Virus record (IMG/VR): IMGVR_UViG_2875722834_000006
DNA length: 42,851 nucleotides
Source: a virus
Taxonomy: Duplodnaviria; Heunggongvirae; Uroviricota; Caudoviricetes
Reading direction: 5' to 3' (one strand)
A program made the position numbers and the translations under genes. The number at the start of each line of letters is the position of its first letter. The stretch's first letter is position 1. Below the pieces are notes generated by a model, which was not told the origin of the DNA, did not search any database, and saw only the letters and a list, made by a program, of their open reading frames with translations. This document shows positions 28,125 to 33,154 of the stretch, one piece after another.

Positions 28125-29186
28125 TTACGCTTTTGTTATTACGCCGATCGCCAGCGCTCGATTCATAAATCGGAATAGCAGCTCCAGCTGGGTACCGTGT
28201 TTTTTCTCGAACGCTGCAACATCAGCATGTAATTTGTCGTGACACTCTCTGCACAGAGGGATCACGAACAAATCGTGGGCTTTAGTGGCGGTACCGCCCA
28301 TGCCGTGACCAATGACATGGTGTGGATCATCCGCTGGCCGCCGGCAACCTTCACAGGGCTGGGTTTTAGCCCACCGGGTATAGTCCTCATTCACCCACCT
28401 GCGGTGTTTTGGGCGCAACATGAATGATTCAGGGGATTCAGGATCCGCATGCAGAGCCAGAACCTGTGGCTGGTCATAGGCCACTTCCTGATTTGTTCCA
28501 TGCTTTAAATGCGCAGCCGTGACCGCAGGGGTGACCTTCTTCTGCAAAATGTTTTTTGTCGGTGGCATCGGCACAATGTCACTTTCGCGATATACGGATA
28601 AAAACGGCTCATCCGGTAAGCGAAGCGCATGCTGGGCCATCCTTTCCGTGATTGCATCAGCAATGCCTGAGTAAACGGCCCACCAGCACAATTCACCGAG
28701 GGATAGTTCACGCTCGTTGTTGTAGCCAAGCGAAGACAGGATAGAACTGATCAGCCAGTTAATGAGATTACGCCGGGCCAGTTCTGCCAGCGCCGCGGTG
28801 GTTTGCTCGCGCAGCTGGTTATCGCAATGCCAACAGAGCAACATTGATCCAGGGGGATGTCGCATCGTTACCAGCTCATGATGGTGATAATTAGTGTGCG
28901 GGTACTGGCATTCCTTCACGTTACGCTCTAGCCAGGATTCCAACCCGGACAAACCGCCTGCTGCACGGATAACTCTCTCGTCGGTGAAGAATTCCTCGAG
29001 GGACTTATCTTCTGCCAGCGGCTGCCGGGCATCAGGGACGAGCCCCGACGGAAGCCCAGCCATGCTTTTTGGCTGAGGCTCCACCAGCACACGCCCCTGT
29101 TGAAACAAAGACATCAGTTCGCTACCCGGCTTTAACAGCACAAGCCCAAGGCGCGGAACAGTCTCGGCTGTAAACAGTCCTCTCAC
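28125..29186 (-). CDS. DUF968-like protein with C-terminal HNH-type Cys/His motif
   Basis: C-terminal HHVIGHGMGG...CRECHDKLH motif; GTG start overlapping upstream stop; typical location near Q in lambdoid prophages. Confidence 0.5.
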   Translation of the reverse strand: MRGLFTAETVPRLGLVLLKPGSELMSLFQQGRVLVEPQPKSMAGLPSGLVPDARQPLAEDKSLEEFFTDERVIRAAGGLSGLESWLERNVKECQYPHTNYHHHELVTMRHPPGSMLLCWHCDNQLREQTTAALAELARRNLINWLISSILSSLGYNNERELSLGELCWWAVYSGIADAITERMAQHALRLPDEPFLSVYRESDIVPMPPTKNILQKKVTPAVTAAHLKHGTNQEVAYDQPQVLALHADPESPESFMLRPKHRRWVNEDYTRWAKTQPCEGCRRPADDPHHVIGHGMGGTATKAHDLFVIPLCRECHDKLHADVAAFEKKHGTQLELLFRFMNRALAIGVITKA

Positions 29187-29875
29187 GCGGCATGCCCCTT
29201 AGCGATGTGTGCCGTCCACAGGCCGCCGATCCACTCGATGCCTTTGGGTGTAAAACGTGCCTGGCTAAAGGCGTAGTTTGTTTCGCTCGTAGTGCCAGTT
29301 TTCACTTCAAACCGCCCGGCAGCAATGTGCTGGTGCCGAGGTGTCAGCACTCCACTGAGCCGGTACAAAATGCCGCTCTCAATGAGGAACAAGCGGAAAT
29401 CGGTCTCTTTGGCCTGCAACAGCTTTGCCACCTGGCGGAAAGACATTGAGCCTTTGGCAGTACAATATCGATCGACAAACTCAACTTTCGGCGCGGCAGC
29501 GGCTAACTGCTGGCTGAGTTGTTCTTTCTGCTCGGCCAGATCCGCGGCGAGACGTAATGCCTCCGGCAATGTTTGCGGGACACTTACGGCCTGGCTGTTC
29601 TCCAGCTCTTGCCAGCGATCGACAACAGCGGCGGTAAATTCTGGCGACAGCCTGGCGACGATCACCAGAGAATCACGTTTGTTAAACCAATACTCCTCGT
29701 AGGTTTGCCCGTTTTGCGGGTGTGTGTAGGGGGTGTGCGCCAACGGCGCGGTTAAAATACCAGCAGATGCAAGGCGCTCAGCTGAGCGCTTCACATCACC
29801 ATGTTTGCTCTGCACCAGCCTGGCAATTTCACGGCTGGACATTGTCACAACACCCTTAGCGGTTAACTGATTCAT
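29183..29875 (-). CDS. Rha-family phage regulatory protein / antirepressor (KilA-C/ANT C-terminal domain)
   Basis: N-terminal VTMSSREIARL...KHGDV motif of Rha family; start at ATG 29875 with GGAG RBS. Confidence 0.7.
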   Translation of the reverse strand: MNQLTAKGVVTMSSREIARLVQSKHGDVKRSAERLASAGILTAPLAHTPYTHPQNGQTYEEYWFNKRDSLVIVARLSPEFTAAVVDRWQELENSQAVSVPQTLPEALRLAADLAEQKEQLSQQLAAAAPKVEFVDRYCTAKGSMSFRQVAKLLQAKETDFRLFLIESGILYRLSGVLTPRHQHIAAGRFEVKTGTTSETNYAFSQARFTPKGIEWIGGLWTAHIAKGHAA

Positions 29876-29889
29876 GCTATTTCTCCATA

Positions 29890-31827
29890 TCAGGCGGCTG
29901 CACCCGCCTTTTGATTTGCACATAATTCAGGAAGATTTGCTTCTACCAGCGCACGAGCGAACGGCGGCGGTACTGCGTTACCACAGCGCGCTACCTGCTT
30001 GTCTTTGGCGTAACGATTGCCGCGATAGTCCTGATCGATAACGTAGCCGTCAGGGAAGCCCTGCGCCTTATAAAGCTCATGCGGTTGCAGCATGCGCATT
30101 CCGATATCGACGATCTGGTACTTAACCCCCTCGATCGTCACCAGCCATTCATCCTCGCTATCACCGCAGTAGGTTTCGAGGAATGTCCGGACCTCGCCAA
30201 CGTGCTGGCCACCAGCGGTAATCGTCGGCATAGGTGTATCCATGGTCTGACCGTCGCGGCAGGTTCCGCGCAGCTTCACCAGGTGCGACGCAACTACCGC
30301 GTGGTGATCAACAGTAGTGACTGAGTGGGCAGGCTCATCCATACCAACACCCGGCCCCGTGTAATTCCCACCATAGTGCTTCGCCAGGAACGCGCTCACC
30401 GTTGCAAACTTATTACCACCAGCAGTGACCGTGCCGAGCGGGTTATTCAGTTGAAGAACACGCGGTTCTTGCCCTGGGCGTTCGCCGTACCCCATCTGGA
30501 TCAGTGTTGGAGTTACCAGCTGCGACTTACCGCCACCACCTGCAGTAATCGTCGCACTCGGTTCGTCAGCCCTGTGCCCAACACTGGCTCCAAACTGGCG
30601 GGCGATGACCGGCGCAACCACGCACGCGCGGGACTGCTTGAGGATTGTATGAGCGGGTTTATCCAGCGGGCGCGGCTTTGCCTGGTACTCACTGCCGCCA
30701 TTGCCAGCCAGGAACGGTGTCAGGGCGGCCTCAACTACGCCAAGCGCATGCCCATTCCCGCCCGGGCGCGCCGACGTACCAGCGGTGACAGTTGGTACCG
30801 GCTCGGTCACTGGCTGCCCGGTGGCCCCGGTGCGGAATTTAGTAAGATGCGGTACCGCCAGTGCGTAGCCATGCTTTTTAGTGATGGTCTGCAATGGCTC
30901 TAACAACGATTGCCCGCGGAAACAGTCATAACCTCCTTTCGTCGTGGTGTGGTTACACTTCACGATGAAAGGTGATGCGCTTTCGATAACAAAGCGCTGG
31001 ATGCCGCGCGCGATACGTTTGAGCGTATTTTCCGCCAGCGGCTTTTTGCGGTCGAAGATGGACCGGGCCGGGATATTCCAGTCAATGCACTCCGCCGCGG
31101 TACGCCATGGCGCCAGCTTGCCGCTTTGTACTTCCAGTGATTTTGGATCCCCATGAGTCGCTTCAGGCCAATGAATCTTGCGGCCGTCACAGCGCATGAC
31201 CATGAAGAAACGCTTTCTGATCGTCGGCGCGCCGTAGTCACATGCGCGCAGCTCCCGATAATCAACCTCATAACCAAGCCCGGCGATCAGCTGTTGCGCC
31301 TGCTGGCCGTGCGGCTCAATGGCAAGGAATTCACAAACCTCAGCCAGCGCAGGGTGATTCGCCGCGATCCCCGTCGACAGCATGCCGACAAATGCCTCGA
31401 ATGTTTCGCCAGCACGCTCAGGATCTGGGCGTAATTCTTCATCCAGCAGCGGGCCCCATGTCTTAAACTCTTCGACGTTCTCCAGCATCATGACGCGGGG
31501 ACGTACTGCCAGCGCCCAGCGCAGGACAATCCACGCCAGCCCGCGAATCTCTTTCTTAACCGGCTTAGCGCCCTTCGCCTTGGAAAAGTGGCGGCAGTCA
31601 GGGCTAAACCAGGCCAGACCGACAGGTTTACCGCTGGTGGCTGCGCTTGGGTCAACGTCAAACACCGACTCGCAATAATGCAGCGTGTCAGGGTGATTCG
31701 TCTTATGCATCGCAATAGCGTTTTCGTCGTGGTTGATAGCGATATCCACGCTACGCCCGATCGCCAGTTCAATGCCGGTACTCGCGCCGCCGCCACCAGC
31801 AAAGTTATCAACGATAATTTCACGCAT
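29890..31827 (-). CDS. DNA (cytosine-5)-methyltransferase with extended, internally repeated variable region
   Basis: Motif I FAGGGG, PC motif (SPDCRHFS), ENV (MLENVEEF), motif VIII (YGAPTIRKRFFMV), motif X (GNAVPPP); four T(I/V)TAGG-containing modules between VIII and IX. Confidence 0.85.
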   Translation of the reverse strand: MREIIVDNFAGGGGASTGIELAIGRSVDIAINHDENAIAMHKTNHPDTLHYCESVFDVDPSAATSGKPVGLAWFSPDCRHFSKAKGAKPVKKEIRGLAWIVLRWALAVRPRVMMLENVEEFKTWGPLLDEELRPDPERAGETFEAFVGMLSTGIAANHPALAEVCEFLAIEPHGQQAQQLIAGLGYEVDYRELRACDYGAPTIRKRFFMVMRCDGRKIHWPEATHGDPKSLEVQSGKLAPWRTAAECIDWNIPARSIFDRKKPLAENTLKRIARGIQRFVIESASPFIVKCNHTTTKGGYDCFRGQSLLEPLQTITKKHGYALAVPHLTKFRTGATGQPVTEPVPTVTAGTSARPGGNGHALGVVEAALTPFLAGNGGSEYQAKPRPLDKPAHTILKQSRACVVAPVIARQFGASVGHRADEPSATITAGGGGKSQLVTPTLIQMGYGERPGQEPRVLQLNNPLGTVTAGGNKFATVSAFLAKHYGGNYTGPGVGMDEPAHSVTTVDHHAVVASHLVKLRGTCRDGQTMDTPMPTITAGGQHVGEVRTFLETYCGDSEDEWLVTIEGVKYQIVDIGMRMLQPHELYKAQGFPDGYVIDQDYRGNRYAKDKQVARCGNAVPPPFARALVEANLPELCANQKAGAAA

Positions 31828-33154
31828 TGACGGCCCCCTGCATGCTGTTGAAGAGACCACCAGCGGTCGTGATAATTTCACTCGTCGGCATACGTTCGAG
31901 CCACAGCTGGTTGATATTGGCTTTCAGCTTGTTCTGCTGCGAAACAGGTAGAGCGTCAGCCCCTTCAATCTGGTTAAACACCAGTCCAACCTCAAGAGGC
32001 CAAACGCGCGATTCGTTTAACGCCTTGTCCTTTGATTCCTGCGTCTCACGGACATGGGCGCGGATCCCCCGAATATTTGACCATTTGGCTTTATCCAGGC
32101 TTTCCATGGTCGCGATGAATTCACTGTGGTTAATGCCGTATTCTTTCGCAGACTCAACGGCAACCGTGCGTAACCGCTCTGACATGTCTTGTTTCACGTC
32201 ATCGCTATCAAAGGGCAATGTTTCCAGCCATGCATTAACACCCACCAGGATGCTCTCGCTGATCAGCTTTTTCGCTCTGTCGATCGTCAGCGGTGAAACA
32301 TTGGTAAATTCAGGGTTTTCCAGAGAGTCGGCAGCCCAGGTATGACCAAACTTTGACTCGCTGAAGGTGTACTCGTCTTTCTTGCCGAACGCCGCGACAA
32401 CACAGGCCCAAGCCTCTACACCGCTGGTTTCCAGAATGGCTTTTTGGGTTAATGGCAGTTCTGCCTCTGATTTCTCCGGCACTACCTCAGCGTCCAGCTC
32501 CGGCGCCGCATCAGTTTGCGTTCTTCCCACGGCAAATTGGGCCAGCGACATCGCAGCACGGCCTTTGGCCTCCAGGTCGGTGCGGTTGATGTAACTGAAA
32601 CGCTCACCCCGCCATGTTTTGTCGAAGACCACGATAGCGCCAGCAAAAAATGCGCTGGTGGGCTGCTGCTTTTCGTCTTTCGGCACGAACCATGTAGGAA
32701 GATCGAAACCAATTCGGCCACGGATGAATGTGACGTGATCTGCCTCTACCGGCCACCACGTTTCACTCGTCGCAGACTTAATGAGAAAAACGTACCGACC
32801 ACCCTTTTCTCGCATGGCCATAGCGTGGTTAATGATGTGGGTCATTCCGGTAACGGCCTGCTTGTCGTGGTACTGAGAGCGGCTGTAAGGCGGGTTGCCA
32901 AACCCGGCACCACCGAGTTCTGCCAGCCGCTCTGACCAATCCTGCATCAGGGCATTATCTTCAGCCGTGTACCATGCTGGGCACTTCGCGTTGCTGTCGT
33001 CGGCAAAAAGGTCCAACACCAGAGGGCCGAACATCGCATTGATCCCCCAAAACAACAGATCCGGAGTGCGCCATTGATCACCGACCTCTTTCAACTCGTG
33101 TGCTGGTTTTGAACGGAGTTCAGCCAGTGCACGGCAGTATTTATTTTCCATCAT
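31820..33154 (-). CDS. Phage-type DNA N6-adenine methyltransferase (Dam family) with about 250-aa C-terminal extension of unknown function
   Basis: N-terminal DQWRTPDLLF and NPPYS motifs characteristic of phage Dam family; long uncharacterised C-terminal half. Confidence 0.7.
   Translation of the reverse strand: MMENKYCRALAELRSKPAHELKEVGDQWRTPDLLFWGINAMFGPLVLDLFADDSNAKCPAWYTAEDNALMQDWSERLAELGGAGFGNPPYSRSQYHDKQAVTGMTHIINHAMAMREKGGRYVFLIKSATSETWWPVEADHVTFIRGRIGFDLPTWFVPKDEKQQPTSAFFAGAIVVFDKTWRGERFSYINRTDLEAKGRAAMSLAQFAVGRTQTDAAPELDAEVVPEKSEAELPLTQKAILETSGVEAWACVVAAFGKKDEYTFSESKFGHTWAADSLENPEFTNVSPLTIDRAKKLISESILVGVNAWLETLPFDSDDVKQDMSERLRTVAVESAKEYGINHSEFIATMESLDKAKWSNIRGIRAHVRETQESKDKALNESRVWPLEVGLVFNQIEGADALPVSQQNKLKANINQLWLERMPTSEIITTAGGLFNSMQGAVNA

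Follow-up and report, generated by a model that had tools for sequence, protein, structure and literature searches.

The window analysed here, a stretch of 42,851 nucleotides (nt) from IMG/VR virus record IMGVR_UViG_2875722834_000006 (Caudoviricetes), is that of a lambdoid temperate phage or prophage of Escherichia coli, and carries on its minus strand a gene for a C5-cytosine DNA methyltransferase of 645 amino acids (aa). Between motifs VIII and IX of this protein lies an array of seven tandem modules. The interpretation that we prefer, tentatively and at nearly even confidence, is that the protein is an orphan phage C5-methyltransferase of a relaxed-specificity family, using alternating one-loop modules for broad anti-restriction. 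We infer that the protein is active, that one module reads one context and that the enzyme has an anti-restriction role.

The open reading frame (ORF) extends over 29890..31881 of the minus strand, with a homologue-supported ATG start at 31827 (MREIIVDNFAGGGG) that yields the 645-aa protein. PF00145 (C-5 cytosine DNA methylase) is the sole Pfam match (E = 1.9e-20, 74 bits), and motifs I, IV, VI, VIII, IX and X follow one another in the canonical order, VIII and IX flanking the variable region, all of which bears out the assignment as a C5-cytosine methyltransferase made in a first-pass annotation of the window. The gene and its catalytic motifs are located as follows.

29890..31827, minus strand: C5-cytosine DNA methyltransferase gene, 645 aa plus stop codon (ORF; PF00145)
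31786..31809, minus strand: motif I, S-adenosylmethionine-binding, DNFAGGGG (aa 7-14), invariant in the 141-sequence alignment A3
31582..31611, minus strand: motif IV, WFSPDCRHFS (aa 73-82), catalytic Cys78, aligned to GPPCQGFS of 3g7u
31465..31485, minus strand: motif VI, LENVEEF (aa 115-121), with ENV at 116-118 (motif reading; alignment A3)
31198..31239, minus strand: motif VIII, DYGAPTIRKRFFMV (aa 197-210), with TIRKR at 202-206, aligned to DYGAPTIRTRYFFI of 3g7u
30043..30102, minus strand: motif IX, GMRMLQPHELYKAQGFPDGY (aa 576-595), with RMLQPHELYKAQGFP at 578-592 (motif reading)
29944..29997, minus strand: motif X, QVARCGNAVPPPFARALV (aa 611-628), with GNAVPPP at 616-622 (motif reading)

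Motif IV reads S-P-D-C, an Asp replacing the Pro that canonically stands beside the catalytic Cys (aa 76-78, window 31594-31602; canonical P-C), and residues S75, P76, D77 and C78 are invariant across all 141 aligned family members (alignment A3). Because members of the family that carry this motif show activity, P-D-C is probably a variant and no defect. AlphaFold2, run with the 141-sequence alignment, modelled the core confidently (predicted local distance difference test, pLDDT, > 90), and in a Foldseek search of the PDB the core alone was matched, best by 3g7u and then by DNMT1, M.HhaI and M.HaeIII. The protein is a divergent yet complete C5-methyltransferase.

These properties bear on the reading of the protein as an ordinary monospecific or inactive methyltransferase, in which the repeats would be a relic within one recognition domain and the enzyme would methylate a single motif, or be silent or defective in the prophage. 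The profile scores would suit such a protein, the 74 bits being low for PF00145 (Bacillus phage enzymes score 300-314 bits) and the TIGR00675 score of 53 bits lying under the 100.65-bit cutoff, as would the P-D-C in place of P-C and the lack of activity of a relative, Phi2LM21_p23, in E. coli. We nevertheless hold this reading to be very improbable, given that the ORF is intact and conserved at 98-100% identity in several phages and E. coli prophages, that the catalytic residues are invariant in the 141 family members, that family members with P-D-C are active and relaxed in specificity, and that the repeat loops are strongly conserved among close relatives.

The array occupies aa 305-558 and consists of modules of 32-47 aa in the order B0-A1-B1-A2-A3-B3-A4. 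Their common frame in this protein is G-x4-(D/E)-x-P-x2-T-(I/V)-T, followed by a variable loop, a hydrophobic strand and a Gly, and the units P-x2-T-(I/V)-(T/L) are spaced 32-48 aa apart. Module boundaries were taken from alignment A2 and supported by a hidden Markov model (HMM).

30820..30915, minus strand: module 1 (B0), aa 305-336, GQSLLEPLQTITKKHGYALAVPHLTKFRTGAT, PLQTITKKHG (independent E-value, i-Evalue, 4.7e-11)
30679..30819, minus strand: module 2 (A1), aa 337-383, core PVPTVTAGTS, with the long Gly-rich loop ARPGGNGHALG (i-Evalue 1.7e-6)
30580..30678, minus strand: module 3 (B1), aa 384-416, core PAHTILKQS
30472..30579, minus strand: module 4 (A2), aa 417-452, core PSATITAGGGG
30358..30471, minus strand: module 5 (A3), aa 453-490, core PLGTVTAGGNK (i-Evalue 8e-16)
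30256..30357, minus strand: module 6 (B3), aa 491-524, core DEPAHSVTTVDHHAVVAS, PAHSVTTVDHH
30154..30255, minus strand: module 7 (A4), aa 525-558, core PMPTITAGGQH followed by the conserved helix EVRTFLETYCG

The four strings from which the first-pass annotation had counted four modules are all present (PTVTAGTSA at aa 345-353, ATITAGGGG at 425-433, GTVTAGGNK at 465-473 and PTITAGGQH at 534-542), each with a hydrophobic stretch after it. The count, however, rises to seven with the units that do not contain AGG, namely TITKKHG at 314, HTILKQS at 393 and HSVTTVD at 501, and the modules are shorter than the about 50 aa then estimated, the median start-to-start spacing in the family being 35 aa. 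A tandem array between motifs VIII and IX had likewise been correctly recognized, but not its dimensions: the span from motif VIII to motif IX is about 367 aa rather than about 330 aa, and aa 209-290 of it belong to the core, where they are conserved and confidently modelled.

The repeats stand well clear of chance. A T[IV]TAG string appeared, even once, in 0.41% of 20000 whole-protein shuffles. Internal duplication of the variable region, the absence of which was to count against tandem modules, is evident from its best self-alignment, scoring 95 against 32-33 ± 4-5 in shuffles (z = 13-15), while the catalytic core gave z = 1.6. An independent module HMM, built solely from 300 modules of distant relatives, recovered all 7 modules in the window protein with i-Evalues of 2e-6 to 8e-16; on 500 shuffles of the region it detected zero modules in 493 and one in 7. 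The 300 distant modules follow the pattern G-x3-(D/E)(E/D)-P-(L/M)-x-T-(V/I)-T, variable loop, (A/G)(L/V)V-x-(A/P)-x-L and final G, with conservation of 99% for the Pro, 95% for the first Thr, 69% for the second Thr, 80% for the Val, 70% for the Leu and 85% for the final Gly; the loop after T-x-T differs among them in sequence and in length. At the DNA level, resemblance between modules of the window gene is confined to imperfect T[IV]TAGG cores of 18-19 nt. The duplications are therefore old and maintained by protein-level selection. Phase variation by repeat slippage was considered and rejected, these short imperfect cores being the only DNA repeats.

The family to which the protein belongs is large. 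A phmmer search of 50%-identity representatives returned 8619 matches at E < 1e-3, of which 2589 had E < 1e-30; the best 150 matches range from 403 to 1113 aa in length, and Proteobacteria, Firmicutes and cyanophage are all represented in the family. When 382 collected members were scanned with the module HMM, the count per protein was 1-12, 6-8 being commonest. The 121 proteins that are at least 78% identical to the window protein fall into 8 architectures of 6-9 modules each, which differ by single whole modules.

40 proteins: architecture identical to the window (B0-A1-B1-A2-A3-B3-A4)
33 proteins: one extra B3-like module
26 proteins: without A3 (P0040 type)
12 proteins: one extra Bx module
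6 proteins: without B1 (P0027-type relatives)
2 proteins: extra Bx plus an extra module after A4
1 protein: one extra By module
1 protein: without A2, plus an extra Bx (A2 loss: P0079)

All of these insertions and deletions are in register, the loop of one module being joined to the strand of the next (alignment A1). Judged from such natural variants, individual modules are dispensable. Within the set of close relatives no part of a module is better conserved than its loop (invariant columns of alignment A1), an indication that every module is under selection; the ARPGGNGHALG loop of module A1 is one that is invariant in close relatives and rare in distant ones. Modules A1 and B1 as a whole are rare in distant relatives, and the last two array positions, one of them A4, are the best conserved, with 44-47% mean pairwise identity versus 34-35% for the interior. 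Given this uneven conservation, the array looks like a conserved frame with variable interior modules. Single-linkage clustering of modules at 60% collapsed into one cluster and was replaced by reference-module assignment and greedy clustering at 50% identity, the latter producing 168 clusters.

Some family members attracted attention on other grounds. An insertion of about 24 aa lies between motifs VI and VIII in P0067 and P0072 (alignment A1, columns 129-153), and a charged-rich insertion of 17 aa follows A4 in P0017, P0036, P0043, P0052 and P0087 (alignment A1, columns 609-625). Phage phi105 (KY197768.1, 29227-30543) contains an about 50%-identical homologue that matches in two pieces, with no annotated feature beneath; it may represent a member of the family, frameshifted or missed in annotation, in this classic temperate phage of Bacillus. 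CP059262.1, a metagenome-assembled genome labelled Exiguobacterium profundum (a firmicute), includes a copy with 70% identity to the enzyme of the Paracoccus phage; this copy could be a case of horizontal transfer, or a binning or assembly contaminant.

Experimental data exist for relatives of the window enzyme. The 5-methylcytosine methyltransferases JCM7686_0772 and JCM7686_2655 from Paracoccus aminophilus prophages, expressed in E. coli, were described as having 'relaxed substrate specificity' (PMC3925955), conferring partial protection from 16 of 28 restriction enzymes and none from 12 (PMC3925955, Additional file 8). Partly blocked were AluI (AGCT), BglI, Bme1390I (CCNGG), BsuRI (GGCC), CaiI, EcoO109I, EcoRII (CCWGG), Hin6I (GCGC), HpaII and MspI (CCGG), HpyF10VI, NciI, PauI, PvuII, TaiI (ACGT) and XhoI, and unprotected were Bsh1236I (CGCG), Bsp68I, Bsp143I (GATC), BspLI, Eco130I, FspBI, Hin1II, HinfI, MbiI, MluI, NcoI and PamDI (PMC3925955). 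The protected sites thus include AGCT, GGCC, GCGC, CCGG, CCWGG, CCNGG, ACGT and CTCGAG, and the unprotected ones CGCG, GATC, CTAG and CATG (PMC3925955). A single degenerate motif separating protected from unprotected sites was sought, and none was found. Many phages of Alpha- and Gammaproteobacteria carry homologues of about 700 aa, and relaxed specificity was also reported for ARM81mr_p29 and ARM81ld_p31 of Aeromonas phages (PMC5537653). Pyei1_p05, from a Paracoccus phage, is reported to share about 69% identity with the tested JCM7686_0772 and JCM7686_2655 (PMC6536676).

The window protein is 45.8% identical to ARM81mr_p29 (100% coverage, E = 2e-163), 41.6% identical to ARM81ld_p31 and 42.6% identical to Pyei1_p05 (98% coverage); the three relatives have 5, 5 and 8 modules, respectively. 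Broad, partial protection by the window enzyme is likely, because its full-length homologues fall in the family with partial protection from 16 of 28 enzymes. Protection against several host restriction specificities, as put forward in the first-pass annotation, is to this extent indirectly supported by homologues of 42-46% identity, but complete methylation of discrete sites is not what the tested members of that family display. A scan of the genome collection with Pyei1_p05 gave 55 loci, in Rhodobacteraceae and other genomes; P. aminophilus JCM 7686 was not among them.

A mechanism can be proposed on this basis. The enzyme would methylate many short contexts in phage DNA and, incidentally, in that of the host, so that incoming or induced phage DNA would be partly shielded from many unrelated restriction systems. 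The seven modules between motifs VIII and IX would be small recognition units, each supplying the near-invariant TL-type Pro and Thr needed beside the flipped cytosine, one variable loop and one strand, and would dock by turns opposite the single catalytic domain. Each module would read a short context, of about 2-3 bp, because it has one loop where M.HhaI and M.HaeIII have two. The specificity of the enzyme would then be the union of the module contexts, showing as 'relaxed' with partial protection, and in-register gain or loss of whole modules would shift the repertoire. Such alternation of modules would account for the invariant Pro and Thr, the single-module polymorphism, the protection of more specificities than there are modules and its partial character.

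Extended to the family as a whole, the proposal would be that of an unrecognised, widespread modular system of at least 2589 50%-identity clusters (E < 1e-30), in which 1-12 one-loop modules time-share one catalytic domain and gain, loss or exchange of modules retunes the restriction sites that are masked. It would be a combinatorial counterpart of the Bacillus multispecific enzymes and would explain 'relaxed specificity'. We consider this extension possible, though on the doubtful side.

The place of TL-type units in known enzymes is relevant here. In M.HhaI and M.HaeIII, two loops between them read both halves of the recognition site, a conserved TL dipeptide opening loop 2; in M.HhaI the TL-type residue pair acts beside the flipped base, and a form with a shortened loop 2 is specific for GCG (PMC2790894). 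Ordinary monospecific enzymes have one P.PT(I/L)T unit before motif IX, as in a printed sequence (PMC11954522). In the wider family studied here, the last module (consensus EPLHTVTTKDRFGLVTV) stands immediately before motif IX; in the window protein and its close relatives this pre-motif-IX module (aa 559-575, window 30103-30153, DEWLVTIEGVKYQIV) is devoid of the P..T.T core. This leaves the canonical TL position beside motif IX empty, with A4 as the nearest TL-type unit.

The first-pass annotation had compared the protein with the multispecific C5-methyltransferases of phages. Its premise is sound: tandem recognition domains in the variable region of Bacillus phage enzymes confer multiple recognition sequences (PMC8936443), and in the sequences of SPR, SPβ (φ3T type), ρ11s and H2, retrieved for comparison, we found 2-4 units of the type (V)Y-x3-G-x-(S/A)-x-T-(L/I)-T-(T/S) at 30-48-aa spacing and a conserved element (D/E/G)EPAFTVNTIDRHG before motif IX. 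Internal repeat signals were z = 7.2 for ρ11s and z = 4.8 for H2. In a BLASTP comparison of the window protein with ρ11s, the best segment pairs DEPAHSVTTVDHHAVVAS of B3 with the pre-motif-IX element DEPAFTVNTIDRHGVAIG (11 of 24 identical, E = 0.002 in a single comparison). Alignment of the window protein to these enzymes thus agrees in unit type and in 30-48-aa spacing, but homology of the units could not be demonstrated (hhalign probability 3.9%). Homology of the modules to known recognition domains was accordingly rejected, HMM and hhalign similarity being non-significant. The likeness, as far as the sequences tell, is one of architecture and motif only.

A further reading, in line with the first-pass annotation, is a classical multispecific enzyme of the SPR/φ3T type, in which several modules, for example the four with T[IV]TAGG, would each be a complete domain fully methylating its own 4-6-bp target, the others being linkers or pseudo-domains. 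Position, unit type and spacing are those of SPR, SPβ, ρ11s and H2, tandem recognition domains are established for the Bacillus enzymes (PMC8936443), and single modules are naturally dispensable, all as this proposal would have it. We nevertheless regard it as improbable, since the protection by tested relatives is partial, extends over at least 16 specificities, exceeding the module number, and is complete for none; since modules of 32-38 aa have one variable loop where structurally known recognition domains use two; and since similarity of the modules to the Bacillus recognition domains is not significant. A few-target reading fits the published protection data less well.

A serious rival to alternating modules is one composite recognition domain, in which the repeats would be beta-hairpins laid along the DNA; base reading near the target cytosine would be weak, hence relaxed, and gain or loss of modules would alter affinity or footprint, not targets. 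Several observations weigh against alternating modules, the first two of them also favouring the composite domain. In most of the distant relatives, counterparts of modules A2, A3, B3, A4 and B0 are present at 40-70% identity, the core median being 54%; this family-wide conservation is close to that of the core, a pattern to be expected of a fixed multi-hairpin scaffold no less than of independent cassettes. The ARM81 enzymes hold just five 'frame' modules yet are reported as relaxed, so that extra modules are not needed for relaxed specificity. The module content of JCM7686_0772 and JCM7686_2655 is presumed from the about 69%-identical Pyei1_p05, and no activity in E. coli was reported for one family member, Phi2LM21_p23 (PMC5537653). 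The module HMMs gave just 0.6-7.5 bits on SPR, SPβ, ρ11s and H2, and when hhalign placed the T-x-T cores of modules and Bacillus units in register, it did so at that probability of 3.9%. Structure prediction was of no help: in the AlphaFold2 model of the window protein with 141 sequences the array (aa 291-540) had an unusable pLDDT of 22-54, and it was of equally low confidence in a short natural homologue, P0315 (532 aa), modelled with a tailored 65-sequence alignment. The predictions lend no support to docking of the modules.

The composite domain would also be in keeping with the superior conservation of the two C-terminal array positions (44-47% against 34-35%), with the merely partial protection by tested relatives at each affected site, and with indels that are always in register, as expected of a solenoid-like repeat. 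Other evidence is at odds with it. The Pro and Thr are kept at 95-99% in every module, although only one module can sit beside the flipped base at once; AlphaFold shows no confident packing between modules, even in the short natural member; and the protected AGCT, GGCC, GCGC, CCGG, ACGT and CTCGAG have no simple shared context, while CGCG, GATC and CCATGG are untouched, unlike plain non-specificity. On balance we think a composite domain somewhat unlikely.

Returning to the predictions, the cores were confident in both AlphaFold2 runs, and short strands were predicted after each T-x-T loop. The low pLDDT is compatible with a flexible array, but may be due simply to repeat-induced misalignment. 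A 79-module profile, searched against PDB sequences, matched no methyltransferase.

The gene is 98-100% identical to copies in phages Phi06_2987 S, Flotzy and Eeyore, and is present at the same identity in 12 of 5426 complete E. coli genomes, always on the chromosome; in all 12 it adjoins a phage N6-adenine methylase gene. The copies in Flotzy, Eeyore and the 12 chromosomes are annotated as 'DNA methyltransferase' or 'DNA cytosine methyltransferase'. In the window, its neighbours are the Dam-type methylase gene, a replication protein gene, a downstream Rha/KilAC antirepressor gene and a DUF968 gene, which places it between replication genes and the antirepressor.

31820..33154, minus strand: upstream phage N6-adenine methyltransferase gene, Dam-type, 444 aa (PF05869, 1.7e-42; TIGR01712, 1.9e-59)

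The stop codon of the Dam-type gene overlaps the start codon of the C5-methyltransferase gene in ATGCGTGA (window 31820-31827, minus strand), with a GGGGG run 8-12 nt upstream. Because of this overlap and this run, the two methylase genes may well be translationally coupled. The Dam-type protein has its N6-adenine methyltransferase in the first approximately 200 aa, and a C-terminal extension of about 240 aa with no Pfam match; the records of Flotzy and Eeyore call the gene 'phosphoadenosine phosphosulfate reductase', which looks like a mis-annotation from a PHROG name. At its other end, the C5-methyltransferase gene overlaps the start of the Rha/KilAC antirepressor ORF (29183-29923) by 34 nt (29890-29923) on the same strand. 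No restriction gene or nuclease partner is evident among the neighbours of the gene in the window, and distant members in Methylopila (an alphaproteobacterium) and Paenibacillus (a firmicute) are likewise located in prophage early regions with no restriction gene. The C5-methyltransferase gene is thus an orphan of the prophage early region.

Should the module model be true, a common prophage gene would give broad, partial immunity to Type II restriction, and lysogens would contain 5-methylcytosine at many contexts, with consequences for McrBC-type restriction, mutation at 5-methylcytosine and gene expression. The family is labelled merely 'DNA cytosine methyltransferase', and a prediction of specificity by one domain and one motif would mislead. 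Natural single-module variants are a ready-made deletion series for the architecture of C5-methyltransferase recognition domains. To our knowledge, no structure of a multispecific C5-methyltransferase has been solved, and how recognition domains are built has been left open since the work on Bacillus phages. One-loop modules that read short contexts might also be used in footprinting or broad methylation. The module array, the 1-12 range of copies and the single-module variants are undescribed in the accessible literature on the family, REBASE and the 2016 ARM81 paper having lain outside the search.

Among known systems, the Bacillus multispecific enzymes (M.SPRI, M.Phi3TI/SPβ MtbP, M.Rho11sI and M.H2I) are, like the window protein, phage orphans with one catalytic core and tandem TL-type units between motifs VIII and IX, and an element (D/E)EPA.T/SV.T.D.H before motif IX is a further likeness. 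Their cores are distant from that of the window protein (PF00145, 300-314 versus 74 bits) and their motif IV is the canonical P-C; they have 2-4 units and, according to published work, discrete targets, whereas the window family has 1-12 units and its tested members are partial and relaxed. M.HhaI and M.HaeIII share the C5-methyltransferase fold with the window protein (Foldseek), but their single recognition domain has two loops and a single TL, as against its seven TL-type units. The nearest solved structure to the core is 3g7u, a putative DNA methyltransferase of prophage CP-933R (sequence E = 6e-7, fold E = 3e-10), which is prophage-encoded in E. coli like the window protein but differs from it in its 376 aa, its ordinary short variable region and its canonical PPC motif IV. 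M.EcoGII and the Mu-like prophage enzymes of Drozdz et al. are described as orphans of very low specificity that block many restriction enzymes (PMC5778455, PMC3299994); their strategy is the same as that proposed here, although they are N6-adenine enzymes of an unrelated fold class with no tandem recognition modules.

The closest known counterparts are the relaxed Paracoccus and Aeromonas 5-methylcytosine methyltransferases, which the accessible literature calls 'relaxed' without describing a module array. They have in common with the window protein full-length homology, the P-D-C motif IV and tandem modules, and their genes are likewise orphans in prophage replication or early modules. The window protein differs from them in having 7 modules, two of which (A1 and B1) are rare elsewhere, in the loss of the P..T.T core from the last pre-motif-IX module, and in coming from an E. 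coli lambdoid prophage and being known from sequence alone. As kin of this kind, the gene would appear to extend a known group, that of phage orphan 5-methylcytosine methyltransferases with relaxed specificity.

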